From contig CAZUXG010000003.1 of assembly GCA_964623985.1 (NCBI GenBank), positions 1 through 55,247 on the forward strand: DNA of 55,247 nt, read 5' to 3'. The notes beneath the pieces were generated by a model. That model saw only the letters and a program-made list of their open reading frames with translations, was not told the origin of the DNA and made no database searches. Origin of the DNA: an uncultured Thermodesulfobacteriota bacterium (lineage in GTDB: Bacteria; Desulfobacterota; Anaeroferrophillalia; Anaeroferrophillales; Tharpellaceae). Shown here in pieces: positions 1,813 through 43,499 of the stretch; the stretch's first letter is position 1, and every line of letters begins with the position of its first letter. A program made the position numbers and the translations under genes.

Positions 1813-1979
1813 TAAAATAAATTTGTTAAGTTTTTAGTTTCTGAACGGAAGATGCTTCAATCCAGGCCTTGCAAGAGGTTTTAGCCGGTTTTTACAGCCG
1901 AGATTTTTAAAAAGCTGTCAGCGATTAACTTTTAGAATTCCGGCTCGATTTCTTGACCTGACACCTGACAGCTAATTGC

Positions 1980-3526: not shown

Positions 3527-4625
3527 CCACAGCTTCCTCTGCTGCAACATAGTCATCTATAATCAAGGCTTTCGAGGGATCGTCGGGGAGTTCGCCGGCA
3601 GTGGCGATATCGAAGAAAATTGAGGTCATGCAGGCCATGACTGCGATGCCGACGCCGATCTCGACGCCTAAAATTCCGAGTGAACGGGATTGGGGGGCGC
3701 CGACCCTTAAAAAAAGATCAAGTTTTTCATAATCGAGGAAATTACCACCCAGTAGCAGACACAAAAGACCCAGCCCTCCGTAGATGAAGACTCCGGTACA
3801 GCAGAGCAAGGTAGTTAGTTTTTCGGTAACCTTGGTCATCGTTCTTCTGAAACCGAAGGCGAGTGTCAGGAGGACGATGCTGGCGGCCAGAATAACGCCT
3901 CCTTGAAAACCGCCGCCCGGTGAATAGTGGCCGTGAGCGATAACGTAAAGGGCGTAGATCTGAATGAATGGGGTAAAGAGGCGGACGATGGTTTTGACAA
4001 TCAGGTTACTTGATTCGGCCGCCAGCATAGCGCTGGACCTTTCATGAGCGTGAGCGATTGGGAGAAATACTCTTTCAATCCGGTCTTCCATGTCTCCGGT
4101 TAAGAGATCATCGGCAACCTTGTTGTCGATTGCATGAATGTAGAAAATGTTCTCATCAAGTTCAACGGTAATGGTTCCCGGGGTCAAGGTTACGGAGTTT
4201 GCAAAAGTAACCAGGGCCAGGCCGTTGGTTAATTTAGTCTGGTAGGGGATGATACTGGGTTTGAGCCGGTCAAGCGGCGAAAAAACCAGTTTTGCCAGAT
4301 ATATATTAGAAAGGATAATCTGGTAAAGGTGCCAAGGGATATAGGTGAGCAGCCGCGGGATAATCAGATAGGTGTCCTCGGCACCGACATGAACAAAAAG
4401 GAAACCACCTGAGGTGTAGGAGATCAGTAGGCAGCAAAAAATACCGATTGTTATGTGAAACAGGTCATAGTGACCGGAGAGTAGGAGCCAGAAGAGAAAA
4501 AGCAGGACAAAGGCCAGGGTAAAATGTCTTACCTGTAAGACTCGTTTCTGCGTAAAAACGGGCTGGTCAGGGGTGCGAGGTGTGTGAGGTTTGGTCTGGG
4601 GAGTAGTTGTAGCCTCGTTGTTCAT
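3519..4625 (-). CDS. Fusion of Mrp subunit E (N-terminal) and Mrp subunit B (C-terminal)
   Basis: 368 aa. The N-terminal half has the MnhE signature NSVTLTPGTITVEL. The C-terminal half has the MrpB signature GHYSPGGGFQGG followed by TM helices. Confidence 0.75.
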   Translation of the reverse strand: MNNEATTTPQTKPHTPRTPDQPVFTQKRVLQVRHFTLAFVLLFLFWLLLSGHYDLFHITIGIFCCLLISYTSGGFLFVHVGAEDTYLIIPRLLTYIPWHLYQIILSNIYLAKLVFSPLDRLKPSIIPYQTKLTNGLALVTFANSVTLTPGTITVELDENIFYIHAIDNKVADDLLTGDMEDRIERVFLPIAHAHERSSAMLAAESSNLIVKTIVRLFTPFIQIYALYVIAHGHYSPGGGFQGGVILAASIVLLTLAFGFRRTMTKVTEKLTTLLCCTGVFIYGGLGLLCLLLGGNFLDYEKLDLFLRVGAPQSRSLGILGVEIGVGIAVMACMTSIFFDIATAGELPDDPSKALIIDDYVAAEEAVDE

Positions 4626-20049: not shown

Positions 20050-21852
20050 TCATGCCGGATTAGAATAGAGGGGCGGAAGCCCCTTTTTTTGTTTATGGGC
20101 TAGTTTACCCGGCGCTTTTTTCTCTAGATTAGGCAATATCGTTTGCCAGAAATAGTTGCCGTCCCAGGTTCGGCCGTCCGGGCTGTAGAGGGTTTCTTCC
20201 AGGTTTGCAAAGGCGTTACCCAAGGTTGGGTTTTCCAGGCGGGCAGCAATTGATTTAAGGTTTTGTGGTGGGTTTTGCGGCCAATTGGCCGCGCCCCAGC
20301 CGAGGATGGCCTGATGTGCATCCCGGGGATTGTTGTCTAAGCAGGCTTGTTTAATAGTTTCTTGATTGATTGTCTGTTTCTTTTTCGGTGTCAGATCTCT
20401 TTCTTTAAGTTCTGCAATCTGCCGGCGCAGGGTTTTACGCCAGAGCAGAACGGTTATAATCCAGGCGATCAGCAGCATCGCGCTGATCGTTTTCCAGAGT
20501 TGGGTGGTATCGGCGTCCACGATTTTTGTGGTTAAAGTATCTGAGGTTGGGGACGGGTTTTTAGCACTGTCTGGTTCCGCTTTGCGGGGTTTTTTTTCAA
20601 TCTTTATATTGCTTCTTTGTGGTTGGTCTGCGAATCCATTGTCAGCCTTGATAACCTTGATCACGCGCGCCGGCAGCACAGCTTTTTGTTGTTTATTGTT
20701 AACCACGTCCCACCAGTCAATCGTGACTTCCGGTAGGGTGAATAGGCCCTCTTGTGAAGGGATAAAGGCCATTGCCTGGCGTTTGACGGCGTGCAACAGC
20801 GCCCCATCGACCTCGGTTTGGTACTCGGCTTGATCGAGATAGATTTTACCGTCGTCAGGGGCATCAGGTTTTATTTCCGGCAGTTGTTCAGCCGTTAGAC
20901 CTAAGGCTTCGATCTGGATTGTCCGGGTCAGGGGCTCGCCGACTTTAAGCACTTTCTCTTCGTCCAGATTTTCCATGATTGCTATTTTTCGCGCCGGTAG
21001 CCAGACCTTGCCTTTAAATTCATCAGGTATTTGAGTCAGTGAGATTGTTAGCTCCTGACTCCGGGCCCGGAGACGCTGGCCGCGACCGGAAAAGCGGTCA
21101 AAAAAGGGATCGGCCGGAAAACGGCGGTTGCCGCCGTTCGTAGTGATCGCCTGAAAAAGTAGTGGCGGAATTGTGATTTCGCGGCCATCTTCAGCGATGA
21201 TGGCATATTTTCGTTCAATTACCTGGTAGGTAAAATCGTTTTTACGGCTCTGATAGCGTCGATCGTCACCGAGTTTAATGATGGTGGCATGTTTTAAGGC
21301 CGGCTCTTCGAGTGAGGCCTCGGTGAGGCGTAATTGATTCTTGATAAAGAGTTTGACGTTGATTGTGATTTGAGCCTGGAGGTATGCCGGGGTATCCATC
21401 TCAGGAGTTACTTCAATGAAGACCTCGGGAAGGGTTTTGGAGGTTTTCGAGGTTTTCGGAATTGGGGTGCTAACGGTTAGGGTCAGGGCCGCGGTTTTTT
21501 CTACCCCGACGTTAAAGGAAGGAATAGTGAAACTTCCGGTTTGTTTCGCTTCCAGCTTAATAGTCCAGGTTTTGGTAGCTTTGCTGGTGCCGTTAATAAT
21601 CTGGAAATTACTGTTGACCGAGCGGTCAACAATGGAAAAATCCTTTTCAAGATTACTGGTGTCAAGGTTTGCAATGCTATTAAGAGCGCCATCGGCTTCG
21701 ATAATGAGTTTAACAGTTTCATCAATGGTGATTGTCTGCCGGTCGAGTCGGGCTCTGACCGCCGCATCGCAAGTTAGAGGCCACTGGCCGACGACAATTA
21801 TAGCGATGATGGCAAAAAAGAGCAGTTGTGAAATTACGGTTTGGCGTTTCAT
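20050..21852 (-). CDS. batD: BatD-family protein (oxygen-tolerance/Bat operon)
   Basis: Start reset to MKRQTVISQLLFF (ATG 21852, 4 nt after the upstream stop). It has a signal peptide, a large beta-rich periplasmic region, one late TM helix and a C-terminal cytoplasmic tail. It is the last gene of the MoxR-VWA operon. Confidence 0.7.
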   Translation of the reverse strand: MKRQTVISQLLFFAIIAIIVVGQWPLTCDAAVRARLDRQTITIDETVKLIIEADGALNSIANLDTSNLEKDFSIVDRSVNSNFQIINGTSKATKTWTIKLEAKQTGSFTIPSFNVGVEKTAALTLTVSTPIPKTSKTSKTLPEVFIEVTPEMDTPAYLQAQITINVKLFIKNQLRLTEASLEEPALKHATIIKLGDDRRYQSRKNDFTYQVIERKYAIIAEDGREITIPPLLFQAITTNGGNRRFPADPFFDRFSGRGQRLRARSQELTISLTQIPDEFKGKVWLPARKIAIMENLDEEKVLKVGEPLTRTIQIEALGLTAEQLPEIKPDAPDDGKIYLDQAEYQTEVDGALLHAVKRQAMAFIPSQEGLFTLPEVTIDWWDVVNNKQQKAVLPARVIKVIKADNGFADQPQRSNIKIEKKPRKAEPDSAKNPSPTSDTLTTKIVDADTTQLWKTISAMLLIAWIITVLLWRKTLRRQIAELKERDLTPKKKQTINQETIKQACLDNNPRDAHQAILGWGAANWPQNPPQNLKSIAARLENPTLGNAFANLEETLYSPDGRTWDGNYFWQTILPNLEKKAPGKLAHKQKKGLPPLYSNPA

Positions 21853-21856
21853 TGGT

Positions 21857-23722
21857 TTACCACCCTTTATGGCCTTGGGAGCGATTTTGTCGGCTGCGGT
21901 ACTGGTAGAGGAACTTTTTTTCCAAGAGGCCCTGTGGGTCATCCGGGACCCGACGAAGCCACTGTTCTAAGGCCTGTTGTTTGGCAGCCATCGGTTTCTC
22001 GTCGTTATCTTCTTTTGCGGCCCCACCTTCCGGTCGTTTTTTTTCTTTTGCGTCTCTGTTTCCAGTGGAGTCTCTGGATTCTTCGAGCGAATCCACAGGA
22101 TTATTGGATTCTAACCCCTGAGTTTTTTCGGGTTCTGGTTCTTGCGGTGGAGGATTGTTTGGAGAAGATTGCTCCTGATTTTGTGTCTGATTATCCTGAC
22201 ACTTTTCACTTTGAGAGCTTTGTTGGTTTTCTTTCGGTTCTGGTTGTTCGGAAGAGTCTTGAGACTGAGACGAATTTTGTTTTGACTCTTGGTTTTCCGG
22301 GTTCTCTTTTTCCGAGTCGTTGTTTTGTGATCTGTCGTTCTGTGATTTTTCCTGTTGTTGTAGAAGTTTTTCGACCAGTTTGCGGTTGAAACGGGCATCT
22401 TCCATAGTCGGGTCGGTTTGCAGAGCCTGGTCGTAGGCCGCGATTGCCTTCTCCAGTTCTCCTGAGTGAGCCAGAGCATTACCTCGGTTATAGTGGGCCC
22501 GGCGAGATGGGAGAGTTTCAAGGACGGTTGCCGCCTCTTTGAAGTTACCAGCGCGGTAGTGGGCCGCCGCCCGCCAGTCGGGATCTTTGGTCAGTTGGGC
22601 GGCTTCGTTAAAGTTCTCTTTAGCGAAGGCTTTCACTGCTTGTTGGGTCGGGCGCTGCCAGAGATTATGCCAGAGATTTTCTAAGTTTTGGGCTGAGGCG
22701 GTTTCGGCGTTGACAAAAATAGCTATAAGGATAACCAGCAGCCAACCTTTACGGAAGCATATTGCCGCTAGCAGGAGCAGAGGAATCAGGAGCCAGGGGC
22801 CGCGATCGTGCCATTGATCACCGGTAAGCTCACTTTTACTTTTGTTTTCAGGAAAAAGGGTATCCGGTTGGTTTAAACGTTGAAAAGAACTATCCTGATC
22901 CTCGATTTCAAAATAGCTGCCGCCCCCGGATTCAGCAACCTCACGCAACTTGTCAAAGGCGGGAACCGGAACCACAATCTGACCCTGCAGGTCTTTTAAA
23001 TAGCGGCCTTCCGCTAAAGGAACCGGGGCTCCTTCTTTTGTGCCGACGGCGATAACATCAATTCGATGACCCGCACTTTTCAGTTTACGGGCCGCTGTGA
23101 TTGTCGATTGGTCGGCATCATCGGCCAGAAGAATTATCTGTCCTTGATTAATGGCTGCTCGTTGGAGTAGCTCGCCGGCTTTTTCAAGGCCCCGGTCGGC
23201 CCGGCTGCCCTGGATCGGAACCGTGTTTGGGTTGAGGCCCGGCAGGAGGTTAAGCAGGGTGGCGCGGTCATCGGTCAGGGGTGTGACAATAAAACTGTCG
23301 CCTGCAAAGACCACCAGTCCCTGTTCGATTCCAACTCCGGCTTTAATCAGGTCAATGGCCTTGTAGTGGGCTCGGTTCAGGCGCGAGGGAGCGATGTCTG
23401 GAGCTAGCATCGAGAGCGACAGATCGAGAACTATGACGCGGCCGTTGGTGGCTCGAAAAAGGGGTTGAGGCAAGCGCTCCCAAGTCGGGCCGGCCAGCGC
23501 CAGGGTGGCGAGAGACAACATTATCAAGAGGCCGCTGTAGATTCTTTTCTGGGCAATTTTTGCTTCACCTACCAGGAGATGTTCAAGCAGGTGGTTGTCG
23601 CAGACTTTATGCCACTGGTTTTTGCCGGGATCACGCCTTTTCAGACCGGCCAGCAGAACCAGGCCGGCCGGCAGGGCCAGCAGCCACCAGGGACGCAAAA
23701 AATGGAAATCATGAATATTCAT
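21857..23722 (-). CDS. batB: BatB-BatC-like fusion: TM + von Willebrand factor A domain + TM + TPR repeats + acidic low-complexity tail
   Basis: 621 aa. The N-terminus FHFLRPWWLLALP is typical of BatA/BatB. It has a VWA core (VIVLDLSLSM … ILLADDAD), TPR-like AHYRAGNFKEA / YNRGNALAHSGELEKAIAAY, and a Q/S/E/N/P-rich stretch. Confidence 0.75.
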   Translation of the reverse strand: MNIHDFHFLRPWWLLALPAGLVLLAGLKRRDPGKNQWHKVCDNHLLEHLLVGEAKIAQKRIYSGLLIMLSLATLALAGPTWERLPQPLFRATNGRVIVLDLSLSMLAPDIAPSRLNRAHYKAIDLIKAGVGIEQGLVVFAGDSFIVTPLTDDRATLLNLLPGLNPNTVPIQGSRADRGLEKAGELLQRAAINQGQIILLADDADQSTITAARKLKSAGHRIDVIAVGTKEGAPVPLAEGRYLKDLQGQIVVPVPAFDKLREVAESGGGSYFEIEDQDSSFQRLNQPDTLFPENKSKSELTGDQWHDRGPWLLIPLLLLAAICFRKGWLLVILIAIFVNAETASAQNLENLWHNLWQRPTQQAVKAFAKENFNEAAQLTKDPDWRAAAHYRAGNFKEAATVLETLPSRRAHYNRGNALAHSGELEKAIAAYDQALQTDPTMEDARFNRKLVEKLLQQQEKSQNDRSQNNDSEKENPENQESKQNSSQSQDSSEQPEPKENQQSSQSEKCQDNQTQNQEQSSPNNPPPQEPEPEKTQGLESNNPVDSLEESRDSTGNRDAKEKKRPEGGAAKEDNDEKPMAAKQQALEQWLRRVPDDPQGLLEKKFLYQYRSRQNRSQGHKGW

Positions 23723-24692
23723 AACGTTTGATTAAGAGCAGTAAAAAAGTGAGCAGAAGAGCGCCACTCAAGGGCCAGTAGAAGAATTCTTGGATGGGTC
23801 GCAGGGCATGGTTTTCACTCAATACCGGTTCCAGAGTGTCAAGCAGGGCGTAGATCTTTTCCAGATCTTTTTTTTCACGGGCTCGAAAATAGCGGCCGCC
23901 GGTAAGTTCGGCAATCTTTTGCAAGGTTTTTTCGTCGAGGTCAGCCGAGGGATTGACGAGCCGGTTGCCAAAAAAACTGTTGACTACCATGCGGTCAGCT
24001 CCGACCCCGATGGTGTAGATCGAAAGCTTACCCTCTTTGGCCAATTCGGCCGCTTTTAAAGGTTCGATGGTGCCGGCTGTGTTTGCTCCATCAGTCAAGA
24101 GAATCAGGACTTTTCTTTCTCCCGGTCGTTGACGCAAGCGTTTGACCGCCAGTCCCAAAGCGTCACCGATCGCGGTTTTTTCGCCGGCAATCCCGATCAG
24201 GGATTCCTGCAAGAGTTGGTTTACAGTTTTACGATCCAGCGAGAGTGGTGCCTGTAGGTAAGCCTGACTGCCAAAGAGGATCAGGCCGACCCGATCGCCT
24301 TGCCGGCGGTTGATAAAATCACCAGCCACCTTTTTGATCATGGTTAAACGATCAACCGGTTGATCGTTGATTTCCATATCCTTGGCTTGCATACTGCCGG
24401 AGATGTCGACGGCCAGCAGTAGATCACGGCCGCTGATAGGTGTGTTTAGAGGCTCACCTATCCATTGTGGACGGGCCGCAGCACAGACCAGTAATAGCCA
24501 TGCGATAACGGCTAGAAACCGGAGCCCAGCGAAACCTTTTTCAGTTGAGGTCTTACGGAACTCTTCAAGTTCCTGAAAAAAAGGGATCTTTAAAGCCATG
24601 CCGGAAGTAGAGCGAGCCCGGGGCAGCAACAGATAGACCAGTAATGGGAGTGGCAAGGCGACGAACAGCTGAATCCAGACAAATTCTATCAT
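23709..24692 (-). CDS. batA: BatA-like VWA domain membrane protein
   Basis: Start reset to MIEFVWIQLF (ATGA overlap with the upstream stop). It has an N-terminal TM helix, the VWA MIDAS motif DISGSM, and a C-terminal TM helix. Confidence 0.8.
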   Translation of the reverse strand: MIEFVWIQLFVALPLPLLVYLLLPRARSTSGMALKIPFFQELEEFRKTSTEKGFAGLRFLAVIAWLLLVCAAARPQWIGEPLNTPISGRDLLLAVDISGSMQAKDMEINDQPVDRLTMIKKVAGDFINRRQGDRVGLILFGSQAYLQAPLSLDRKTVNQLLQESLIGIAGEKTAIGDALGLAVKRLRQRPGERKVLILLTDGANTAGTIEPLKAAELAKEGKLSIYTIGVGADRMVVNSFFGNRLVNPSADLDEKTLQKIAELTGGRYFRAREKKDLEKIYALLDTLEPVLSENHALRPIQEFFYWPLSGALLLTFLLLLIKRYEYS

Positions 24693-25207
24693 GGTCGGAC
24701 CCGGGTTTTTTTCTTCTGTCCGGAGAACCACTCTTTGACAACTCGGCCGAGGGCCACAAGGTCAGTGTCATTGGTCGGAGAGTAGGCATCTTCTATTAGA
24801 GGCTGAAGTTCTTGGTCGGTAAACTGTGTGTCTCTACCTTTGCTTTTTCCAGAGATTTCTTGTTTGAGAAATTCAAGCCACGGCTGGCCGCAGAGCCCGG
24901 CAATCGTTTGCTGTGGAAAAAAAACGATGCAAAAGCGTCTTGTAAGGGCTGAAAGATCTTGCAGCACTTGGCGGCATTGCTCGGGATCTTCGCTCTTCAA
25001 ATCGAGTTGTGCGAGCTCCAGCAAGGCAAGTTTGATGGGCTGGTGATGCAACTGTCGCTGTCGCCACTTATAAAGTCCGAAACTGATTAGCGCTAGCAGT
25101 AAAAAGGTTATAAACCACCAGCCCGGAGCTGGAGGCCACCAACCCGGAGCTGGGGGCAGATGAATATCCTTAAGTGCGGCCAGAGGATTTGAGTTTATTG
25201 GATTCAT
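24689..25207 (-). CDS. DUF4381-like small membrane protein of MoxR/Bat operons
   Basis: 172 aa. It has PPAPGWWPPAPGWW followed by a single TM helix, and sits between the DUF58 and BatA genes. There are 4-nt overlaps on both sides. Confidence 0.65.
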   Translation of the reverse strand: MNPINSNPLAALKDIHLPPAPGWWPPAPGWWFITFLLLALISFGLYKWRQRQLHHQPIKLALLELAQLDLKSEDPEQCRQVLQDLSALTRRFCIVFFPQQTIAGLCGQPWLEFLKQEISGKSKGRDTQFTDQELQPLIEDAYSPTNDTDLVALGRVVKEWFSGQKKKTRVRP

Positions 25208-26163
25208 GGCCGATGCACATTTTGTTTAAGGCTTAAGCCGCGGCGCATGATACCGGCGATATCATCACCGGAGACGACTTTGAGATAGGGGATTTTCAGG
25301 TTGCCGGCGATGCGCCCGAGGTTTTCCCGGCGTGCATTAAACTTTTCACTGTAAGCGTTGCGTACGATAGCGGCTTTGGTGTTGAGCCGGGCTTGATCAT
25401 GGCCGTTGCTTATATTGTAAAGGCCCGGGGGTGGTGCCTTGAGCTCCAGGGGGTCGATAATTTGGCAGAGGATAAGGTCGTTGTGGCGGCGCAGGCGGTT
25501 CAGGTTGCGTTCGAGATTCTGGTCATGGTTATAAAAATCACTGATCAGGAAAATCCGGCTGCCGGGACGGATGGTGCGAATTCCGTGATGGAGAACCTGC
25601 TCTAAAGAAGGTTCGGAACTTTCGGTTGTGGGTGTTTGGGTTGCCTTAACGAGGGCATGGATCAGTGCCAGTACCCCTTTACGACCGGCCTGCGGCCTTA
25701 AATCGAATTTTTTCTGTGGGGTCAGAAGAATACCTCCGATACGGTCACTGTTAAAGGCCGCTGTCCAAGCCACTGTTGCAGCGAGCCGGGCAGCAATTAC
25801 CGATTTGAAGGCCTCTTTGGTGCCGAAATAGAGGGAGGGGCTAAAATCGACCAGGGTCAGGACTGGGCGGTCACGCTCCTCAGCATAGAGTTTGGTATGG
25901 GTTTTGCCGCTGCGGGCCGTAACCCGCCAGTCGATACTGCGGATATCATCGCCCGGGGTGTAGATCCGGGATTCAGCGTAGTCCATGCCGCGTCCGCGAA
26001 ACTTGGAGAGCGTATTGCCGGCCATAATGGAGTAAGCCCGTCGATTGTTTTTGCCGATCAGGGAACGGGCTGTATGGCGCAGATCGAGAAGCTCTTCAGT
26101 TGTGCAGGTAATCCCGTTGACGGATGAAGGTTGCGGTTTTCTAAAAATCTTTGCCAGACGCAT
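25204..26163 (-). CDS. DUF58 family protein (MoxR-associated, VWA-like fold)
   Basis: Start reset to MRLAKIF (ATG 26163, after the MoxR stop at 26171). The motif YAESRIYTPGDDIRSIDWRVTAR is the DUF58 signature. Confidence 0.8.
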   Translation of the reverse strand: MRLAKIFRKPQPSSVNGITCTTEELLDLRHTARSLIGKNNRRAYSIMAGNTLSKFRGRGMDYAESRIYTPGDDIRSIDWRVTARSGKTHTKLYAEERDRPVLTLVDFSPSLYFGTKEAFKSVIAARLAATVAWTAAFNSDRIGGILLTPQKKFDLRPQAGRKGVLALIHALVKATQTPTTESSEPSLEQVLHHGIRTIRPGSRIFLISDFYNHDQNLERNLNRLRRHNDLILCQIIDPLELKAPPPGLYNISNGHDQARLNTKAAIVRNAYSEKFNARRENLGRIAGNLKIPYLKVVSGDDIAGIMRRGLSLKQNVHRP

Positions 26164-26170
26164 ATTGGGG

Positions 26171-27184
26171 CTAGGGCACCGGGATATAGCGCAGTAATTC
26201 GTCGATTGCCTCTTCACTTTTGATCCCTTCGGCTTCGGCTTCAAAGGTCAAAAGTAGACGATGGCGCAGGATGTCATGGATAATGGCCTGGATGTTTTCC
26301 GGGGTCACATACTTTTTACCCTGAAGCCATGCATGGGCCCGGGCACAACGGTCCAGAGCAATAGAGGCCCGCGGGCTGGCGCCGTATTCGATCCAGCGCC
26401 CCATCTTCTCGTCGCAGGCCTGCGGGTTACGGGTGGCGAGAATAAGTTGGACGATATACTCTTTAAGCGGATCTGCCATATACAGATCAAGAATTTCGCG
26501 GCGCGCTCGGGTGATTGCTTCGGGCGTGAGAATTGCCGATTGTGAAGGTTTTTCTTCCAGTTCACTCAAAGCTTCACGCCGGGCCAGTTCAAGAATTTTT
26601 TTTTCGCTGTGATAGTCTGGATAATCGACATTGATCTGCATGAGAAAACGGTCAAGCTGGGCTTCCGGCAGGGGGTAGGTGCCCTCCTGTTCGATCGGGT
26701 TCTGGGTTGCCATGACCATAAAAAGATCGGGCAGGTAATGGGTTTTACGGCCGACACTGATCTGTCTTTCCGACATCGCTTCCAATAGAGCCGACTGAAC
26801 CTTGGCCGGGGCCCGATTGATCTCGTCGGCTAAGACAATATTGTGAAAGAGTGGCCCGGGCTGAAAGCGAAAAGAGTCATTGCTACGTTGGTAGATTTCG
26901 GTGCCGGTAAGGTCAGCCGGCAGGAGGTCGGGAGTAAACTGCAGGCGTTGAAAATCACCCTCGATACAATCGGCCAGGGCTTTTACGGCTCTGGTTTTGG
27001 CCAGTCCCGGAGCTCCTTCAACCAGCAGGTGACCATCGGCTAGTAAAGCGACCAAGAGCCGTTCAACTAGAACTTGCTGACCGATGATCTCGGTTTCCAT
27101 ACGTTCTTTGGCCTGTTGGAAAGCCTCCCGGGGTTCATTACCTGGCGGCGCGATGTTTTGCAGTGAGGTGGTTGTCGGTTCCAT
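26171..27184 (-). CDS. MoxR-family AAA+ ATPase
   Basis: Walker A GAPGLAKT and Walker B VLADEINRA. Start set to ATG 27184, because the track's GTG 27217 lies inside the pspA terminator stem. Confidence 0.9.
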   Translation of the reverse strand: MEPTTTSLQNIAPPGNEPREAFQQAKERMETEIIGQQVLVERLLVALLADGHLLVEGAPGLAKTRAVKALADCIEGDFQRLQFTPDLLPADLTGTEIYQRSNDSFRFQPGPLFHNIVLADEINRAPAKVQSALLEAMSERQISVGRKTHYLPDLFMVMATQNPIEQEGTYPLPEAQLDRFLMQINVDYPDYHSEKKILELARREALSELEEKPSQSAILTPEAITRARREILDLYMADPLKEYIVQLILATRNPQACDEKMGRWIEYGASPRASIALDRCARAHAWLQGKKYVTPENIQAIIHDILRHRLLLTFEAEAEGIKSEEAIDELLRYIPVP

Positions 27185-27202
27185 AAGAGGGTTCTTTCGG
27201 AG

Positions 27203-27248
27203 TAAAAACAAAAGCACGAAATTGGCATAAACCCAATTTCGTGCTTTT
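27203..27248 (-). terminator. Rho-independent terminator after the pspA-like gene
   Basis: On the minus strand: AAAGCACGAAATTGG / CCAATTTCGTGCTTT, a 15-bp stem with a 7-nt loop, followed by TTTTGTTTTT. Confidence 0.7.
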
Positions 27249-27262
27249 GGGGATTATTAAGA

Positions 27263-27943
27263 TCAGTTGTCGAGCTTGGCTTTGAGAGCGGCGAGTTTAT
27301 CGTTGACCGCCTGGTTGGTGTGGTTTTCACCCAAACCGGCAAACTCATTTTCGAGGCTGTCACCGCTGTCAGCCGCCATTTCGGCGGCTGCGTCGGCTTC
27401 ATGGGATGAACGTTCGGCTTTAGCCCGCATTCGCGCCATGAGATCATCGGCAGTATGTTTATTAGACATCTTGGCCTTGGCTTGGTAGATCTGTTTCTTG
27501 ACTTCCGAGGCTTTACTCTGGGCGATGATGAAATCGCGGTTGCGCTTAAACTCGGCCAGCTCATCCTCAATGCGACGGATATCCTGTTTGAGACTTTCGA
27601 TCTGGCCGCGCTGTTCCTTGCAGCGCGGTTCCATCTCCAAGGCCTTCTTTTCATGTTCTCCGGCCCGGGCTAAAGCTTTCACCGCGAGATCTTCGCGGTT
27701 GGCCTTAAGTGCGGCTTCAGCTTTGGCCTCCCAGTTACTCTGCTCGAGTTTATCTTTATCGAGAATCGCCTTGGCCTGTTTCTCGGTGGCGATACATGAC
27801 ATGACTGCCTGTTTGGCCTCTTTGATCTGTTTTTCTTTGTCGCGGATGGCCTGATCCAACATCAGTTCAGGGGTTTCCATTTTGTCGATGGCCTTATTGA
27901 CTCCGGCTTGGCCGACCTTGAATATTCTACTGAAGATGCTCAT
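27263..27943 (-). CDS. PspA/IM30-family protein (YjfJ-like paralog)
   Basis: 226 aa. It has the MSIFSRIFKV… amphipathic N-terminus and then a continuous coiled coil (…LDQAIRDKEKQIKEAKQAV…), the PspA/IM30 architecture. AAGGAGA SD. Confidence 0.85.
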   Translation of the reverse strand: MSIFSRIFKVGQAGVNKAIDKMETPELMLDQAIRDKEKQIKEAKQAVMSCIATEKQAKAILDKDKLEQSNWEAKAEAALKANREDLAVKALARAGEHEKKALEMEPRCKEQRGQIESLKQDIRRIEDELAEFKRNRDFIIAQSKASEVKKQIYQAKAKMSNKHTADDLMARMRAKAERSSHEADAAAEMAADSGDSLENEFAGLGENHTNQAVNDKLAALKAKLDN

Positions 27944-27982
27944 ATATTGGTTCTCCTTAAAAATGTTAAGCGAATGAATTTG

Positions 27983-28127
27983 TTAACTATTTGGGTACCC
28001 GTACCGTTTTCAAATTGTCTCGGTGCGGGGCTTTGCTCCAGACCGGGCTGAAAGCCCGAGCCGCGTGGCGTCGTGTCCCCTTCGAAGTGGGCGAAGCAAA
28101 GTTCGCCGTTATCCGCTGTAACTTAAC
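27983..28127. repeat. Intergenic structured repeat, copy 2 of 3 (~145 nt, expanded central hairpin)
   Basis: Shares blocks with copies at 189-298 and 31372-31497: TAACTATTTGG, AAATTGTCTCGGTGCGGGG, GTCCCCTTCGAAGTGGGCGAAGCAAAGTTCGCCGTTATCCGCTGTAACTTAACT. It contains the hairpin GGCGAA-GCAAAG-TTCGCC. Confidence 0.9.
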
Positions 28128-28533
28128 TCAGATAATCTGCCAGCAGGGTTTCGGCTCGATCAACGGCCAGTTCCAAGGTTGTGAAAACGCAGAGTAGTTC
28201 ATTGCTGTCGAGATTTTCGGCTTCGCGGCTCTCAACCAGAACTAGACGAGGGTCGTCGGGATTGGCCCGGTTGAGACCAAAGGCGACCGGCAGGATTTCA
28301 GTGTTGAGATCAAGCAGGTCATGGTAGAGTTTCTCAGTGGCGACAGAGCTGATATTGCCCAGATCAATTTCGAAGTAGAGATGATCGTCTTCCAGGTTAA
28401 TGAAGACCGGTAATTCACCGTCGCGTTCGACCCGGTAGATGGTTTCTTCAAGTGCCTCGACAGTAAATTCGTTAAATTCGAGAAAACTGACAAGATCTTC
28501 TTTCAACGAGCTGGTCACGATTACCTGTTTCAT
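28123..28533 (-). CDS. YjfI-like (DUF2170-type) small acidic cytosolic protein, chaperone-like
   Basis: 136 aa. The pattern …GELPVFINLEDDHLYFEIDL…LLDLNTEILPVAFGL…LVLVESREAENLDSNELL… parallels YjfI-family proteins that pair with YjfJ-type PspA. This assignment is from memory of the family, not from a search. Confidence 0.5.
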   Translation of the reverse strand: MKQVIVTSSLKEDLVSFLEFNEFTVEALEETIYRVERDGELPVFINLEDDHLYFEIDLGNISSVATEKLYHDLLDLNTEILPVAFGLNRANPDDPRLVLVESREAENLDSNELLCVFTTLELAVDRAETLLADYLS

Positions 28534-28608
28534 ACGACATCCTTTTTACCGTTTTAATCAGGTTGACGTTATTGATTTTTTTTAAGGATATTTACCTTAT
28601 TGGATGAG

Positions 28609-28637
28609 AATATAGGACTCTTTTCAGGTGTGGTCAA
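28609..28637 (-). promoter_or_regulatory. Candidate sigma70 promoter for the yjfI-like / pspA-like pair
   Basis: Minus strand reads TTGACC - 17 nt - TATATT, about 70 nt upstream of ATG 28533. Confidence 0.45.
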
Positions 28638-28677
28638 GAGGTATGTACCTTTATTTGAAAATTCTAAGATCTCTCTT

Positions 28678-29784
28678 TTATGTTAAGCTTGAGTCCGAAT
28701 TCAAAATATCTTTTTCAATGACGCTGAAATCGCGGCGGCTTTCGGCCAGCATGATGAGTTTATTACCCTCTTCAATGCATTCATTTTTGGCCGGGTTGAG
28801 GATGGTCTTTCCTTGTTTGATGATGCCGATGACCTGGAGGTTGGCGGGGTGTTTGAGGACTGCGACCTGAATATCGGCAACCTTGTGACCGGCCAGTTGC
28901 GTGTCGAGGATATAGAACTGACTGCCGATCTTGTTGCTGATGATCTGAGTGATGATTTCATGAATCCCGGGGTAGAGAAATTCTTGGGCCAAAAGGCAAT
29001 CGGTCAGACCTTCCGGAGTAACAATGCCGTCGACTTTGGCCCTTTGCAAAAGGCAGAGATTCTCATGATGGATGAGTTCGGCAACCATTTTGAACGGATA
29101 GTGATGTTCCTGTCGGAGCTGTTCGACAACCGAGGCGATGGCAAAGGTAATGGCATCGGCGTCACTGTTGAAAGGGTCGCCGGCGAGGATGAAGACCCCG
29201 GCCGCCGCCATAAGGTTTGCTTTATGTAGCACCTGTTCACTGGTCGGGTTGCCGTAGACAAAGGCAAAGTCATCGGCCGGTAGACTTTCGGGCAATTTCG
29301 TGATTGTGTCACTGACGATCACGAAGAATGAGTGTTCATAGGCTGGATGCAACTTCAGTTCGGCGGTCAGGCGTTTGAGTTTGTCGAGAGTGGGAAAGTT
29401 GCAGATGATGATGTGGTGTTCTCTGGTTATTTGCACAAGTCCTCGCTTTCTTTTTGAGATATAATCAAAAACACTTTCCGCCACCATCCCCAATAGATAG
29501 CCGATAATTGCGATACCGACCAGCATGCAGGGATAAGCGATCAGAAAACGGCCGATTTCAGTCTGCGGGGAGAGATCCCCGTAACCGACCGTGGTCATGG
29601 TTACCATTGCCCACCAGATACTGTCGGCTAAGTCAAGTTCAGGTTGAACGTTTCGTTCAACAAGGTAGAAGACCAGACCGAAAAAAAGGTTCAGGAAGAG
29701 GGCCAGAGAGAATATCCGAACCAGGCGCAGGCGCTGATAGTTGTGTTGATGTAACCAGCTTAAAAAACGTTGAAAAATAGGCAT
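28678..29784 (-). CDS. Two-TM potassium channel with cytoplasmic RCK (TrkA-N/TrkA-C) gating domains
   Basis: 368 aa. Selectivity filter TTVGYGD (codons at 29575-29595), followed by HHIIICNFPT… Rossmann-like and C-terminal TrkA-C-like segments. Confidence 0.88.
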   Translation of the reverse strand: MPIFQRFLSWLHQHNYQRLRLVRIFSLALFLNLFFGLVFYLVERNVQPELDLADSIWWAMVTMTTVGYGDLSPQTEIGRFLIAYPCMLVGIAIIGYLLGMVAESVFDYISKRKRGLVQITREHHIIICNFPTLDKLKRLTAELKLHPAYEHSFFVIVSDTITKLPESLPADDFAFVYGNPTSEQVLHKANLMAAAGVFILAGDPFNSDADAITFAIASVVEQLRQEHHYPFKMVAELIHHENLCLLQRAKVDGIVTPEGLTDCLLAQEFLYPGIHEIITQIISNKIGSQFYILDTQLAGHKVADIQVAVLKHPANLQVIGIIKQGKTILNPAKNECIEEGNKLIMLAESRRDFSVIEKDILNSDSSLT

Positions 29785-29799
29785 CGATTTTTGTTGTCT

Positions 29800-30459
29800 C
29801 TATAACGCATCCCGGAGGGCATTACCTTGGGTGATAATATCTTTGATCACCGTTTCAGCAGCAATCTTTCCCTCCTTATCTTCATAGCCGAGATCCGGCC
29901 AGTGGATTGATTGGTTGCAGATCTCCAGAATTTCATCCCAGACCGATCCTAAAAGTAAATCGAACTGCCAGTTGCCGTCGGCATCGCGACCAAAACGTTT
30001 TTCGTTTATGAAACTCATGAAGACGAGTTCAATCGGGTCGCTTTTTAAGTATTCCGCGACTGCGATACGCAAGTCATCCCAGCGTTGTTCAGCTAGAAAA
30101 GCTTCCCATTCCGGTTTTGTTGGATAGTCGTCATAGTAATTGAAGGCGAATTCACCACTGGTCAGGTCAACGGCGCAGAAGATATCACTGATGGTCATGT
30201 TTTCCCGGTAATGTTTGAGAAAATTATGATGCAGGGTTTTGCCTTTCCGGCTGACACAGTAATGTTGCTCCTGGTCGATTTCAATCAGTTCACGAGCCAT
30301 GAGTTCATCAAAAATTGATTCTAAATCTTCATTTTTTTCGTTGAGCAGAATCGAAATTCTGGTCTTTTCCTGAATCATGTAATCAAGCAGGTAGAGGCGG
30401 GCGTAGTGATGTCGCTGTTTTTCGTCAAGTTGATAGGGTAGTTGAGGTAAATTATTCAT
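29800..30459 (-). CDS. Hypothetical acidic cytosolic protein (possible winged-helix N-terminal domain)
   Basis: 219 aa, no TM helices, Trp/Asp/Glu-rich C-terminal half. Translationally coupled (ATGA) to the DUF350 gene. I recognised no family. Confidence 0.6.
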   Translation of the reverse strand: MNNLPQLPYQLDEKQRHHYARLYLLDYMIQEKTRISILLNEKNEDLESIFDELMARELIEIDQEQHYCVSRKGKTLHHNFLKHYRENMTISDIFCAVDLTSGEFAFNYYDDYPTKPEWEAFLAEQRWDDLRIAVAEYLKSDPIELVFMSFINEKRFGRDADGNWQFDLLLGSVWDEILEICNQSIHWPDLGYEDKEGKIAAETVIKDIITQGNALRDAL

Positions 30460-31343
30460 GAGAAGAAGAGACTTCCGACAACCAAAGCAATGATAATGGC
30501 GACTCCACCCTCAATCAGGGCCGCGCCCCAGTTGTGGTCCTGACTGATCTCTTCGTCGAGCAGGGCTCCGGGAAGCAGCAATTTGTCGGCGATATAGCGG
30601 CCTGTAACCAGAAAGAAAAAACTTACCGGGAGCCATAAGATGAGCCCCGGCAGGGAGTCGTAGGCGGCGATATAGTCGGCTAAAAGGATGCCGACGGCAA
30701 CCATGCTCAATCCGAAAGCAACTCCGGCGGCGGGGTTGTCCTGCTCAATTTCGTGGTGCAGGTCGAAACGACTAATATGTTGGTAGAGGCGGCCGAAGAG
30801 GAGAAAGGTGGCTTGAGCAATAGCGAAATAGAAAAAAGTGCCGAAAAGGTCGGTAAAAAAACCTGAGCCGGAACCACTTAAAACGGTTTTTATGATAATC
30901 CCTGAGGCGATAAAGGTGCAGCCTTCAATAGCTCCGGTGCCGAGATTGTGATCTTCGATGATTTCCTTGTGGTTCTGGAAATTAGGCAGCAGATAATTGT
31001 CATTAAGGTATTGCGAGATCTGGAGCAGGCCGATTCCGAGCAGTCCCCAAAAAAAGATCTCAATCAGGTCAACGATCAGGCTCCCGAAGCCGGTGACGGC
31101 AGCATCACCGTTGGGGGTGATAACCCCCCAGAGAATGAGGCCTAAGGCGAAAAGGTAGCCGCTGGTTGAGAGGGCCACCGCTTTGTTGTCGGTGGTGGTT
31201 AGTTCATGGTCAAGGTCGTAGCTTGCAAACTTGTTGTGCAGGTGTTTGCCGATAACCATGATAACCAGAACGACCAGCAGGTAGGTTGCAGCAACCGGTT
31301 GAAAAAGTTCGGCGATGGGGCGCAAAGAAAAAAAACTGAACAT
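30456..31343 (-). CDS. Tandem-duplicated DUF350 (YjfL-like) integral membrane protein
   Basis: 295 aa, ~8 TM helices. It has four copies of the DUF350 half-repeat signature (TTDNKAVALSTSG, EDHNLGTGAIEG, EQDNPAAGVAFG, SQDHNWGAALIEG). Confidence 0.65.
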   Translation of the reverse strand: MFSFFSLRPIAELFQPVAATYLLVVLVIMVIGKHLHNKFASYDLDHELTTTDNKAVALSTSGYLFALGLILWGVITPNGDAAVTGFGSLIVDLIEIFFWGLLGIGLLQISQYLNDNYLLPNFQNHKEIIEDHNLGTGAIEGCTFIASGIIIKTVLSGSGSGFFTDLFGTFFYFAIAQATFLLFGRLYQHISRFDLHHEIEQDNPAAGVAFGLSMVAVGILLADYIAAYDSLPGLILWLPVSFFFLVTGRYIADKLLLPGALLDEEISQDHNWGAALIEGGVAIIIALVVGSLFFS

Positions 31344-31371
31344 GACTTAATCCTTATTAGCTTAGATTTTG

Positions 31372-31497
31372 GGTAACTATTTAGGGCAACTATTCAGGTT
31401 TTGTCCACAAATTGTCTCGATGCGGGGATCGACCTTTAGTTCTGTCCCCCTCGAAGTGGGCGAAGCAAAGTTCGCCGCTATCCGCTGTAACTTAACT
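31372..31497. repeat. Intergenic structured repeat, copy 3 of 3 (~126 nt)
   Basis: GTAACTATTTAGG … AAATTGTCTCGATGCGGGG … CCTTTAGTTCTGTCCCC … CGAAGTGGGCGAAGCAAAGTTCGCCGCTATCCGCTGTAACTTAACT. It is in the same orientation as the other copies and lies between two minus-strand genes. Confidence 0.9.
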
Positions 31498-31500
31498 CTT

Positions 31501-32355
31501 TTATTTACCACCAAAGCGGCCGCCGCTCCGACCGAAACCGCTGCTTCTGCGTACCGATGGACGGGACGGACGGGGTTTTGAACTTCGGCCAAAAGCACTT
31601 TTACCGATCTGTTTTGAGGGGTTGCGTTTTTGAAAACTTTTCTGTGAAGAGGTTGGTTTTTTCAATGGTGTCTTGATACCTTTAGCCGCACTTTTACCGG
31701 CATTAGGTGAGGTTGCTTTACCTTTAACAGTGCTGCTGGAAGCGCTTTTCAAGTTTCTTTTACCAGCGGTACGTTGCTGGTAGTTTGCCTGAGAAGTCGT
31801 ATTGTAGGATCTGTAATGTCCTGGATAGTTGCCGTAGCCCCAGGGTGAAGCGTAGAAGGGGTGGGGCCGGAAAAGCCAGTACATGAACAGCATATCGGTG
31901 ATTCCGAAACTGCTGCGATGATAGTGATTTTGGCCATAGACCTGTTCATTACCCTTGACTTCGACGTTGGCCTGATCGGCACCGCTTTTTTCGATTGCGA
32001 TCGTCGCTATTTCCTGGGTCTCGCCAGCGACTGGTTCAACCGTTAGAGAGAAGCCTTTGGTCTGCTCATTGCCAAACTCGGTGACCTTGAGATAGTCGAC
32101 CTTGCCGTCTTCATCGAGATCGAGATTGTTGAGGCCGGTATCTGGGTCGTTGAGTAGGCGTTCCAGAGCGGCCGCGTTTTCAGCTTTTTTCAGGAGTGAA
32201 CCAACGGTTGCCAGATCGAGACCTTCACTGCCATAGGCTATGGTTTGAACACTGACATTATACTGTTTTTCACCTCCTCCTGAAGGCCAGAAGAAGGAGA
32301 TGAGGATGAGGAGAAAGAAAACTCCGGCCAGGATCTTGAAAATCTTTTCATTCAT
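31501..32355 (-). CDS. Signal-anchored protein with a DxDxDG loop and a basic Ser/Lys/Arg/Gly-rich tail (possibly YjfM-like)
   Basis: 284 aa. It has an N-terminal TM helix, an NLDLDEDGKVDY loop, an aromatic-rich mid-section, and a C-terminal ~90 aa of low complexity ending …RRSSGFGRSGGRFGGK. Confidence 0.6.
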   Translation of the reverse strand: MNEKIFKILAGVFFLLILISFFWPSGGGEKQYNVSVQTIAYGSEGLDLATVGSLLKKAENAAALERLLNDPDTGLNNLDLDEDGKVDYLKVTEFGNEQTKGFSLTVEPVAGETQEIATIAIEKSGADQANVEVKGNEQVYGQNHYHRSSFGITDMLFMYWLFRPHPFYASPWGYGNYPGHYRSYNTTSQANYQQRTAGKRNLKSASSSTVKGKATSPNAGKSAAKGIKTPLKKPTSSQKSFQKRNPSKQIGKSAFGRSSKPRPSRPSVRRSSGFGRSGGRFGGK

Positions 32356-32420
32356 GTTTAAACCCCATTTTGTTTGCAGTGGTCAGTGTGCAGGTTTTTA
32401 CTGTCGACTGCTTACTGATT

Positions 32421-34079
32421 TTAGTATCCGGTTTGCCAGCCTTTTAGATAATACGTGAAAATCTTATGATTAACAAGGGTATTTATTTCACTTTCATTGG
32501 TTTTAAGCTGATTTGTGCCGAAATTTAGCGAAGCATCGATAAGTTCCGGGGTTAAGTAGCGGGTTGGAACCGGCAGTACGTTTCTCTGTTTAAGCTTCTC
32601 TTTTAAACTTTTTGATGACCACTTTTCACTGTGACCGCCAATCCACCAGCCCCATTCGCCAAAGGAGGGGACATTGTCATGGTAGGGAATAACGTTTAAA
32701 TCAGCTGCGGCCATGCTGCGACCGATACAGAGAAAAGCTTCACGGGCGTGATAGGGAGAGGTCGCCTGTTGGACAAAAATGCCGTCGATGGCCAAGCGGT
32801 CGGCCAAGTGGCGGTAGAAGGTGCGGGAGTAGAGTTTGGCCAACTCCTCGTTGTTGGGGTCGGGAAAGTCGACGATGATGATATCAAATTTACCGGCCAA
32901 TTTCTCCACTAAAGAAGCTGCATCAAGGTGAACCAGAGTGACTATGGCGACCTCTTCGGGCCGGCTGCCAAAGCGTTGGTGCTGGTCGGGGATGCGAATC
33001 ACTTCATCTTTGTTTTGCGGAATCAAACTGTTATTTTTCAGGATGTTGATTCTGGCATCTCTCAGACTGTTTCGGTTAAGTTTGATGAGAGTCGGGTGGT
33101 TGCGGGCCAGGTCGGTCATCTCCGGGTCGAGGTCGCAAAGCACGAGTTCTTTAACCGTCTCGTATTTAAGGACCTCCCGGGCGGCCAGGCCGTCTCCGCC
33201 ACCGAGGATGAGGACGCGGCGTTGAGGTTTGGCTAGGGCGAAAGCGGGATGGACCAGGTTTTCGTGGTAGATATGTTCATCGGCGCTGTTAAATTGGAGG
33301 CTGCCGTTGATATAACAGGAGATTTCGGCGGCCCTCGATTTAGTCAGCACAATATGTTGGAAACGAGTGGTTTTACTTAATATGACGCGGTCGCGATAGA
33401 GGTACTGCTCGGCGCTTGAGGTCCAGTTCCGGGCCTGAAAAAGACCGCTTGCCAAAAGTAGTGAGGCGGTCATCAGAGTTGCCCATAAACGGACGCTAAA
33501 GGTGACTTTTGAACGAAAGTAGAGTAGTAAGATGGTGGCGGCGGAAAGGTTTAAAAGTCCCAGGACAAAGGCGGTTTCGATCAAGGTGAAAAAACGGGGC
33601 AGTAGAAAAACCCAAATCAAGGCTCCTGCCAAGGCGCCGACGTAGTCCATTTTTAGAACCTTGCCGAGATTAACCTTGAGCTGGTTGGTGTAGGCAGAGT
33701 TGAGCCGGGCGATCAGGGGGAGTTCAAAGCCTAGCAGGAGACCGATGCTGCTGATGAAAGCATATTGCGCTATGACATAGTAATTGGGGGCCATGCCGTA
33801 GGTGAAGAGCAGGGCCAGAGGACCGCAGCCTCCCAAAACCCCCAGCAAAATTTCGGCGCCGATAAATTTATCGAGCAAAAGCTGGTCGTTGAGGCGTTTT
33901 TGCAGGTCCGCGCCGATGCCCATACAGAACATCATGGCGCCGATCACCAAGGCCCACTGGCGGGCGGAATTTCCGAGCAGGTCGGCGGCCACCCGGCTTA
34001 AGGTATATTCGTAGGCGAGACCGCAACCTCCCATGATAAAGGTTGCCAGATAGAGAATGAAGGAGGCTGAGATATTCAT
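32421..34079 (-). CDS. Membrane-anchored spermidine synthase-like aminopropyltransferase
   Basis: 552 aa. The N-terminal ~210 aa are polytopic. The C-terminal domain has VLILGGGDGLAAREVLKY, CDLDPEM and FDIIIVDFPDP, the SpeE-family binding motifs. Confidence 0.8.
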   Translation of the reverse strand: MNISASFILYLATFIMGGCGLAYEYTLSRVAADLLGNSARQWALVIGAMMFCMGIGADLQKRLNDQLLLDKFIGAEILLGVLGGCGPLALLFTYGMAPNYYVIAQYAFISSIGLLLGFELPLIARLNSAYTNQLKVNLGKVLKMDYVGALAGALIWVFLLPRFFTLIETAFVLGLLNLSAATILLLYFRSKVTFSVRLWATLMTASLLLASGLFQARNWTSSAEQYLYRDRVILSKTTRFQHIVLTKSRAAEISCYINGSLQFNSADEHIYHENLVHPAFALAKPQRRVLILGGGDGLAAREVLKYETVKELVLCDLDPEMTDLARNHPTLIKLNRNSLRDARINILKNNSLIPQNKDEVIRIPDQHQRFGSRPEEVAIVTLVHLDAASLVEKLAGKFDIIIVDFPDPNNEELAKLYSRTFYRHLADRLAIDGIFVQQATSPYHAREAFLCIGRSMAAADLNVIPYHDNVPSFGEWGWWIGGHSEKWSSKSLKEKLKQRNVLPVPTRYLTPELIDASLNFGTNQLKTNESEINTLVNHKIFTYYLKGWQTGY

Positions 34080-41913: not shown

Positions 41914-42135
41914 CTGAAGTCAATAAAATACGTTTGTAGTAGACATGGGTTATCTCTCCAATGTTTTTTACTGCCTACTGCCCATTACATGGGGACAAAG
42001 TTTTTGCCCTGCGGATCTTCAGTCGTTGCCGCGACGGTTGCCCGGGTTTGACTTTCACTACTCGGTCTGCTAGGGTCAGGGGCTGATTTTTTTTGGTTGT
42101 GATGTTAGGTTTGTCATCACTTTTGTGGAGTGTCA

Positions 42136-43491: not shown

Positions 43492-43499
43492 CATAGCGT

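Follow-up and report, generated by a model that had tools for sequence, protein, structure and literature searches.

A conserved gene cluster linking a CesT/Tir-type protein and a PspA paralogue to a membrane SpeE-like enzyme, a duplicated DUF350 protein and a K+ channel

PspA, IM30 and ESCRT-III form a universal membrane-repair machinery, and how paralogues of these proteins are targeted and regulated is the question raised by the locus described here. It lies on contig CAZUXG010000003.1 (assembly GCA_964623985.1) of an uncultured Thermodesulfobacteriota bacterium, whose 55,247 nucleotides, the whole stretch analysed, we call the window. Within it, seven co-directional open reading frames (ORFs) on the minus strand run from position 34079 down to 27263 and end with a PspA paralogue. 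Do they form one system and, if so, what might it do? A preliminary description of this DNA had proposed seven genes, and all of them are present with exactly the boundaries proposed:

32421–34079, minus strand: membrane aminopropyltransferase (SpeE-like), the first gene, assigned by matches to profiles and to relatives of solved structure
31501–32355, minus strand: p284, an anchored protein with a putative calcium loop and a basic tail, without a Pfam or NCBIfam family
30456–31343, minus strand: tandem-duplicated DUF350 protein of the YjfL type (PF03994)
29800–30459, minus strand: p219, an acidic protein with a predicted winged helix, without a family, with an AlphaFold 2 (AF2) model
28678–29784, minus strand: MthK-like K+ channel with Ion_trans_2 and RCK-type domains, aligned to MthK
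28123–28533, minus strand: CesT/Tir-type chaperone-like protein (PF22550, PF05932)
27263–27943, minus strand: PspA/IM30 paralogue (PF04012), the last gene

With moderate confidence, we read these seven genes as one operon forming a self-contained envelope-stress or membrane-homeostasis module, of the class that combines a CesT/Tir-PspA pair with polyamine-type enzymes. From this composition we infer a function that would couple aminopropyl transfer, possibly in the form of the local polyamine synthesis proposed earlier, to K+ flux and to PspA.

The evidence that carries this reading comes from a survey anchored on the p219 family. One genome per species was scanned, which found the family in 150 genomes; the best 80 of these loci were retrieved and all their ORFs compared with the seven window proteins. 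Forty-eight loci had flanks long enough to show the whole cluster, and these serve as the denominator for all gene counts. All seven genes were present on one strand and in the order of the window (SpeE-p284-DUF350x2-p219-channel-CesT-PspA) in 34 of the 48 loci, bearing out the earlier claim of a co-conserved module centred on PspA. Counted singly, p284 occurs in 46 loci, the CesT-type gene and PspA in 45 each, DUF350 in 43, SpeE in 41 and the channel in 40. In five loci only the channel is missing, and the remaining incomplete loci lack one arm of the cluster. The nearest relatives, at 84-86% identity, are Candidatus Tharpella and related metagenome-assembled genomes (MAGs). In all, the gene order recurs in ten or more bacterial phyla. 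The loci are labelled Thermodesulfobacteriota, Ca. Tharpella, Calditrichota, Verrucomicrobiota, KSB1, Planctomycetota, Myxococcota, Spirochaetota, Bacteroidota and Acidobacteriota, with reduced forms in records labelled Gemmatimonadota, Nitrospinia and Lentisphaeria, which extends the known distribution of such operons well beyond Proteobacteria.

When the remaining flank ORFs were clustered, two further genes emerged, both co-directional with PspA and placed directly behind it. One, found in 31 of the 48 loci, encodes an AdoMet_dc protein (SpeD); the other, found in 29, encodes an AAA+ ATPase that combines AAA_lid_6 with a helical N-domain. This extension (L021-L085, for example L038:12961-14958 and L080:6196-7991) brings the module to nine genes. 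The SpeD linkage supports transfer of aminopropyl groups from decarboxylated S-adenosylmethionine (dcAdoMet) as an integral activity, with the caveat that SpeD homologues can be neofunctionalised into other decarboxylases (PMC10407285). Neither gene is found in the 55-kb window or its closest relatives. What recurs across phyla is a compact set of seven to nine genes, among them a recognisable K+ channel, a dedicated SpeD and, in p219 and p284, two proteins that belong to no family. An AAA+ ATPase beside an ESCRT-III homologue is reminiscent of Vps4 and Snf7.

Two loci of the survey stand apart. A complete seven-gene bacterial cluster lies on an Asgard-binned contig labelled Promethearchaeota archaeon (L046, JAIWHJ010000063.1); this is probably a mis-binned bacterial contig, and horizontal transfer is the less likely explanation. 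In a Gemmatimonadetes MAG (L004/L029, 5990-11933), a four-gene form, p284-DUF350x2-p219-K+ channel, lacks SpeE and CesT-PspA and sits directly 3' of a sigma-54 activator gene.

The arrangement of the genes in the window is that of a single transcription unit with a defined end. From the ORF coordinates, the intercistronic gaps are, 5' to 3' along the operon, 65, 157, -4, 15, 144 and 179 nt. The overlap of -4 nt is an ATGA (tcATGAat) shared by the DUF350 stop codon and the p219 start codon, so the coupling of these two genes noted earlier reflects a real overlap in the sequence. Two signals were found in or near the gaps:

27209–27249, minus strand: intrinsic-terminator-like hairpin with a 17-bp stem and a T-run
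28609–28637, minus strand: sigma-70-like site, TTGACC-17-TATATT, matching the consensus at 10 of 12 positions

The hairpin is perfect over its 17 bp, begins just 3' of the PspA stop codon (27249-27209) and also follows PspA in the related locus L009, and therefore PspA is placed as the last gene of the unit. The sigma-70-like site, the best such match in the locus, falls in the 144-nt gap between the channel and CesT genes and may be a putative internal promoter for the CesT-PspA pair; sites of this kind, which are consensus matches only, numbered nine where 6.9 were expected. The promoter consensus scan reported no sigma-70-like site upstream of the first operon gene. A search for the sigma-54 promoter TGGCAC-N5-TTGCW found none near the cluster, and fewer matches than chance across the window.

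The two genes at the 3' end encode the pair that defines the class. The PspA paralogue matches PspA_IM30 (PF04012) over residues 2-222 (E 1.6e-37, 129.7 bits against a cut-off of 33.9), in agreement with its recognition from the letters alone as a PspA/IM30 coiled-coil protein, and its residues 1-224 align at 80 bits to the structures of its closest solved relatives, Synechocystis PspA and Vipp1. It has the full-length domain of this bacterial ESCRT-III family, including the N-terminal amphipathic helix, and scores 37 bits against E. coli PspA. Immediately upstream of it is the CesT/Tir-type gene, and the dyad is found in 45 of the 48 loci. The small acidic product of that gene (pI 4.06) had been likened to YjfI/DUF2170; Pfam places it instead in the sister family CesT_Tir_1 (PF22550, E 4e-10), with a further match to CesT (PF05932, E 5e-6) and none to DUF2170 (PF09938) at E <= 0.1. 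A BLASTP alignment to E. coli YjfI is in register but non-significant (E 0.036), as is the top PDB match, the DUF2170 structure 8q8o of BacA (E 1.1).

The first gene encodes the presumptive polyamine-directed enzyme. Its product exceeds the equivalog cut-off of NCBIfam NF002956, polyamine aminopropyltransferase (long membrane form, PRK03612; 579.6 bits against 472), matches Pfam Spermine_synth with an E-value of 1e-31, and gives a borderline match of 40.1 bits to NF037959 MFS_SpdSyn. About seven hydrophobic segments occupy residues 1-215 and a SpeE-type catalytic domain residues ~219-552. A spermidine-synthase-like enzyme with a polytopic N-terminal membrane domain had been proposed, and both halves of that proposal are found. 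The closest solved structures for the catalytic half are thermospermine synthase ACL5 (6bq2) and T. thermophilus SpeE (1uir). GGGDG, CDLD and VDFPDP (D-x-x-D-P) are kept and align with the motifs of 6bq2 and 3anx, so the enzyme retains the dcAdoMet-binding and catalytic signature of aminopropyltransferases. Where the catalytic domain lies is less straightforward. When hydropathy and charge were averaged over 53 orthologues, basic residues concentrated in loops 2-3, 4-5 and 6-7; combined with seven spans, the positive-inside count would make the catalytic domain extracytoplasmic, like p284.

The protein p284 (284 aa, pI 9.8), predicted to be extracytoplasmic, carries a single N-terminal anchor, the loop NNLDLDEDGKVDY and a basic tail, as had been described for the product of 31501-32355, which was taken for a signal-anchored protein with a DxDxDG loop and a basic low-complexity tail. 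It belongs to no Pfam or NCBIfam family, and its 449 homologues are all unnamed. Their alignment has invariant N77, L78, D79 and L80 as well as D87 and Y88, and near-invariant N76, E82, D83 and G84; by their pattern, D-x-[DN]-x-D-G, the conserved residues are predicted to form a calcium-type loop. Conserved motifs also run through the Lys/Arg/Ser tail although it is predicted to be disordered. A cysteine at positions 22-26 gives 13 of 28 orthologues a lipoprotein-like appearance. The AF2 model has a mean predicted local distance difference test (pLDDT) score of 75 overall and ~90 in a beta-rich domain, and found no significant fold match in the PDB. A comparison with DUF1190 had been suggested: the window protein has no match, two of 28 family members have sub-threshold matches (E >= 0.088; CarG-like matches, also sub-threshold, occur in 19 of 28), and hhalign against E. 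coli YjfM returns a probability of 0.5%. Residues ~152-163 were considered as a second transmembrane (TM) segment, which would make the tail cytoplasmic, and rejected: with only ~11 hydrophobic residues the stretch is short, and in the model it lies packed against the globular domain.

The remaining membrane proteins were straightforward to place. DUF350 (PF03994) matches in two stretches (E 1.2e-53, 181 bits), and this profile check, together with eight hydrophobic segments, upholds the tandem duplication proposed for this protein, whose loops are acidic (pI 4.64) and which has no solved relative among known structures. The channel has two TM helices, a TVGYGD filter and one cytoplasmic RCK domain, where RCK domains in the plural had been described. 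It matches Ion_trans_2 (E 1.8e-17, 63 bits) and, just above the respective cut-offs, Slo-like_RCK (26 bits against 24), TrkA_N (24.5 against 23.8) and Castor_Poll_mid (29.8 against 26.7), and aligns full length to MthK (residues 23-343, E 3e-16).

Next, we asked how this gene set relates to known systems. The operon class has already been defined by comparative genomics (Ravi et al., 2024; PMC11237479). Its spermine-synthase-type operons combine a CesT/Tir-PspA dyad, a 7TM spermine-synthase-like protein and an 8TM YjfL/DUF350 protein with a lipoprotein (Ctha_1186 plus a low-complexity tail), DUF4178 and sometimes, as in Shewanella, a ribbon-helix-helix (RHH) regulator; the context of Shewanella oneidensis SO_3765 reads LipoSIG+Ctha_1186+low-complexity, YjfL 8TM, SIG+TM+Spermine_synth, CesT_Tir-DUF2170, PspA, DUF4178, RHH (PMC11237479). 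The ATP-grasp-type group, found in E. coli and Alteromonas, instead has an ATP-grasp ligase, a K+ channel, a 4TM DUF350, DUF1190 and DUF2491, in the Alteromonas order CesT_Tir-DUF2170, PspA, K+ channel, DUF2491, YjfL, DUF1190, ATP-grasp (PMC11237479). Operons of the spermine-synthase type were proposed to monitor polyamines or aminopropylation in order to alter membrane structure (Ravi et al., 2024; PMC11237479).

The window has a 7TM SpeE-like enzyme, an 8TM DUF350 and CesT/Tir-PspA in one operon, which is the spermine-synthase type as Ravi and co-workers define it. It shares with SO_3765-type operons the dyad, the polytopic SpeE-like enzyme and the duplicated DUF350, and p284 resembles the Ctha_1186 lipoprotein in its described architecture of anchor, globular domain and low-complexity tail. 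Unlike in those operons, the gene order differs, p219 and the MthK-like channel are inserted between DUF350 and CesT, the chaperone is PF22550 rather than DUF2170, none of the seven window proteins matches DUF4178 or RHH, the distribution is largely outside Proteobacteria, and SpeD and the AAA+ ATPase are often appended. The architecture is thus a hybrid, a SpeE-type core with a channel and with p219 replacing DUF4178, that is not listed by Ravi et al. (2024); the additional K+ channel and 219-aa protein pointed out in the preliminary description are indeed additions relative to published layouts.

That description had compared the locus with E. coli yjfIJKLMC. The core logic it saw there, a CesT/Tir-type protein, a PspA paralogue, DUF350 and a polyamine-directed enzyme, is shared by the two loci and by P. 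aeruginosa bacABCDEF, and Ravi et al. (2024) place these operons in one class. An RCK K+ channel is present in the Alteromonas variant as well. Profiles also support the differences it drew: a membrane aminopropyltransferase here where yjfIJKLMC has an ATP-grasp peptide-spermidine ligase, and a duplicated DUF350 here where the other is single (4TM). Moreover, p219 is unrelated to YjfK and p284 to YjfM, and the PspA paralogue scores only 28 bits against YjfJ. Its statement that the yjf locus has no experimentally established function no longer holds in full. YjfC and YgiC are peptide-spermidine ligases in vitro (cited in PMC11762307, for YjfC from Pederick 2023), and yjfIJKL is up-regulated in heat-evolved E. 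coli strains (PMC12492005). BacA, a DUF2170 protein with the fold of a type III secretion chaperone, acts as a repressor of the bac operon, and an interaction with the PspA-like BacB is reported for it; BacB becomes more abundant upon osmotic shock (PMC10948618).

Two further systems are related in part. Like classical Psp (pspFABCDE) and Vipp1/IM30, the locus encodes a full-length PspA/IM30 protein with an N-terminal amphipathic helix; unlike classical Psp it has no PspB, PspC or PspF and no nearby sigma-54 promoter match, and the partners are entirely different. From the enzyme's side, Li and colleagues reportedly described, in 2019, clusters of a major facilitator superfamily (MFS)- or 7TM-spermidine synthase (SpdSyn) fusion, AdoMetDC and DUF350, and M. 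tuberculosis Rv2597-Rv2601 is named alongside them. These clusters likewise link a membrane-fused SpeE-like enzyme to DUF350 and, in most phyla, to SpeD; unlike in our locus, the actinobacterial form is without the CesT-PspA dyad, and we know of no K+ channel or p219 family member reported in them. Literature searches on DUF350, PspA and aminopropyltransferase turned up no experimental work on operons of the window's type. What the locus adds is a defined system in place of a vague association of PspA with polyamines, the general logic of which had already been published (Ravi et al., 2024).

How might such a module work? We suggest that a membrane arm, made up of p284 outside, the 8TM DUF350 protein and the MthK-like K+ channel in the membrane, and p219 and the RCK domain of the channel inside, would sense or adjust the state of the membrane and the cation balance. 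At the membrane, the embedded aminopropyltransferase would transfer aminopropyl groups to an amine, be it a polyamine or another substrate. The CesT-like chaperone would keep hold of PspA until it is needed, and PspA would then polymerise on the inner leaflet through its amphipathic helix, seal damage and limit ion leak.

Several points weigh against this reading. Every functional step beyond domain identity is drawn from gene context. The window and its closest relatives have no SpeD gene adjoining the cluster, and CesT-PspA, SpeE and the channel are each absent from some loci, so the arms can work apart. If all seven segments of the enzyme span the membrane, the topology predicted by the positive-inside count is at odds with a reaction that depends on dcAdoMet, which leaves two options: segment 198-214 fails to cross the membrane, or something out of the ordinary takes place. 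Finally, the product may not be spermidine. Fusions of a SpdSyn to a membrane domain, linked to SpeD and DUF350, are said to have failed to complement E. coli speE, in the 2019 work of Li and colleagues, who reportedly found organisms with such fusions to be without spermidine and suggested an acceptor other than putrescine. The locus bears on the role of the thousands of membrane-fused SpeE-like enzymes linked to DUF350, which according to this prior work may not make spermidine.

These last points lead to the alternative that survives best, one we regard as unlikely on balance yet deserving serious weight: the SpeE-like enzyme aminopropylates a protein lysine, for example in the p284 tail, or a lipid head-group, rather than making free spermidine or spermine, and PspA, DUF350 and the channel respond to or support the modified envelope. 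The topology puzzle sharpens this possibility, in that an outward-facing catalytic domain would share a side with p284, whose tail motifs are strongly conserved despite predicted disorder. Annotation of the flank ORFs of the loci found no diamine-forming enzyme gene in the cluster, and the reported lack of speE complementation and of spermidine points the same way. Ravi et al. (2024; PMC11237479) name "aminopropylation of other substrates" as an explicit option, and YjfC and YgiC, from the ATP-grasp operons related to this one, join spermidine to peptides. On the other side, the enzyme stands above the NF002956 equivalog cut-off, the solved structures nearest to it are those of true polyamine synthases, dcAdoMet is not known to be available outside the cytoplasm, and any protein or lipid acceptor is so far hypothetical.

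The part of the module with the least precedent is p219. As the preliminary description had it, this is an acidic cytosolic protein of no known family: it has 219 residues and a pI of 4.66 (4.1-4.7 across the family), no family in Pfam or NCBIfam and no Pfam match in any of 30 members. The family is small and closed. A set of 5.8 billion proteins holds 439 homologues, all unnamed; a profile search of 1.84 billion representative proteins returned 287 representatives, only the p219 family itself, with no link to a named family. Among the 150 matches listed, members are 95-335 aa long and none is a fusion. A tblastn search of plasmids with p219 gave no match, and hhalign against E. coli YjfK (DUF2491) gave a probability of 0.2%. 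The AF2 model (pLDDT 88.5) is largely helical, with an N-terminal winged helix and a C-terminal domain; it has no significant match in the PDB, where the winged helix alone resembles known folds and the C-terminal domain has no structural match.

A winged helix invites the idea that p219 is a conventional transcription factor that autoregulates the operon, possibly through a GGCGAA-N6-TTCGCC palindrome. There is weak similarity to HTH_45 and to PadR-like proteins, one source annotation reads PadR regulator, the modelled N-terminal domain resembles the winged helices of DtxR, FadR and PadR, and the two repeats described below hold the perfect 6+6 palindrome. We nevertheless consider this improbable. 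Across the family, the helix in the place of a recognition helix has a mean content of 0.1 K+R and 3.4 D+E, which makes DNA binding unlikely for a protein that is acidic as a whole. The gene lies in the middle of the operon, with its translation coupled to that of a membrane protein, identity of ~50% across phyla is unusually high for a regulator, and the palindrome belongs to a dispersed repeat that is missing from most related loci. A protein-protein adaptor or ligand sensor is more likely than a DNA-binding regulator.

An adaptor role can be combined with the non-polyamine acceptor in a single scheme, which we put forward as a long shot. Here the outward-facing SpeE-like domain would modify an acceptor other than a polyamine, either a lipid head-group or, as the most attractive candidate, the conserved Lys-rich tail of p284, so as to create a polycationic surface layer; the linked SpeD would make the dcAdoMet, and the 7TM domain would deliver it. 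Inside the cell, p219 would act as an ESCRT-II-type adaptor that recruits PspA, the ESCRT-III homologue, to a complex of DUF350 and the K+ channel, and the AAA+ ATPase would take the role of Vps4 in the lineages that possess one.

The preliminary description had also drawn attention to a structured repeat in the two largest intercistronic gaps, both copies of which are present:

27975–28135, minus strand: copy A of a repetitive extragenic palindromic (REP)-like repeat, in the gap between the CesT and PspA genes
31365–31505, minus strand: copy B of the REP-like repeat, in the gap between the p284 and DUF350 genes

Over a core of 56 nt the copies in the two gaps agree at 96% of positions, and 100 shuffles produced no comparable pair. 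Similarity extends into the flanks, and copy A has one extra inserted hairpin. The element, ~90-160 nt long, consists of the core GCGAACTTTGCTTCGCCC and the stem GGGGACAG...CTGTCCCC. Its presence in the two gaps was therefore correctly seen, but the element also occurs elsewhere, with a third copy at window 191-279 on the minus strand, between two unrelated genes of the Mrp-antiporter region, and so is no feature of the operon as such. All three window copies are sense-oriented between co-directional genes.

Could the two copies be a cis-regulatory RNA of the operon, such as processing sites, attenuators or a riboswitch-like element, that sets downstream expression? Both are in sense orientation, both contain hairpins, and a copy occupies the same p284-DUF350 gap in L009. 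We think this very improbable. One of the three window copies lies outside the operon, and related genomes (L007, L009, L010 and L012) carry copies at differing intergenic sites: in the p284-DUF350 gap, ahead of SpeE, behind PspA and, in reverse orientation, in the gap that separates the channel gene from CesT. Rfam scans of the window at gathering thresholds and of the locus at E <= 1 gave only a tRNA elsewhere and two chance-level matches, the fold energies of the two gaps with repeats do not improve on those of shuffled sequence (z = -1.2 and -0.05), and clusters from other phyla are without the repeat. The best reading is that of a REP-like dispersed element, specific to this lineage, which came to lie in the larger gaps.

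The weakest alternative, that seven unrelated genes are adjacent by chance, has nothing in its favour apart from the single genes missing in a minority of loci and is refuted by the shared order and strand in loci of many phyla whose flanking genes vary from phylum to phylum, so that the module moves or persists as a unit.

In the window itself, the upstream neighbour is a divergently transcribed gene for a dCache-PAS hybrid histidine kinase, and downstream there is an unrelated Bat/MoxR-type operon (20050-27217, minus strand) encoding MoxR AAA_3, DUF58, DUF4381, VWA, VWA-TPR and BatD proteins. PADLOC defence models assigned the cluster to no system; they returned only a generic methyltransferase-fold match (mad2) and a coiled-coil match, E 0.004. 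Other ion-homeostasis genes are spread over the window at 316-4625, 14596-16371 and 42130-44951, namely subunits of an Mrp-type antiporter, a CBS-domain ClC channel, and TrkA followed by an adjacent 483-aa ORF; the adjacency of these Mrp, ClC and TrkA genes to the cluster is not conserved elsewhere. The Bat/MoxR-type operon also follows the cluster in the closest relatives, L007 and L009, and not in other phyla.

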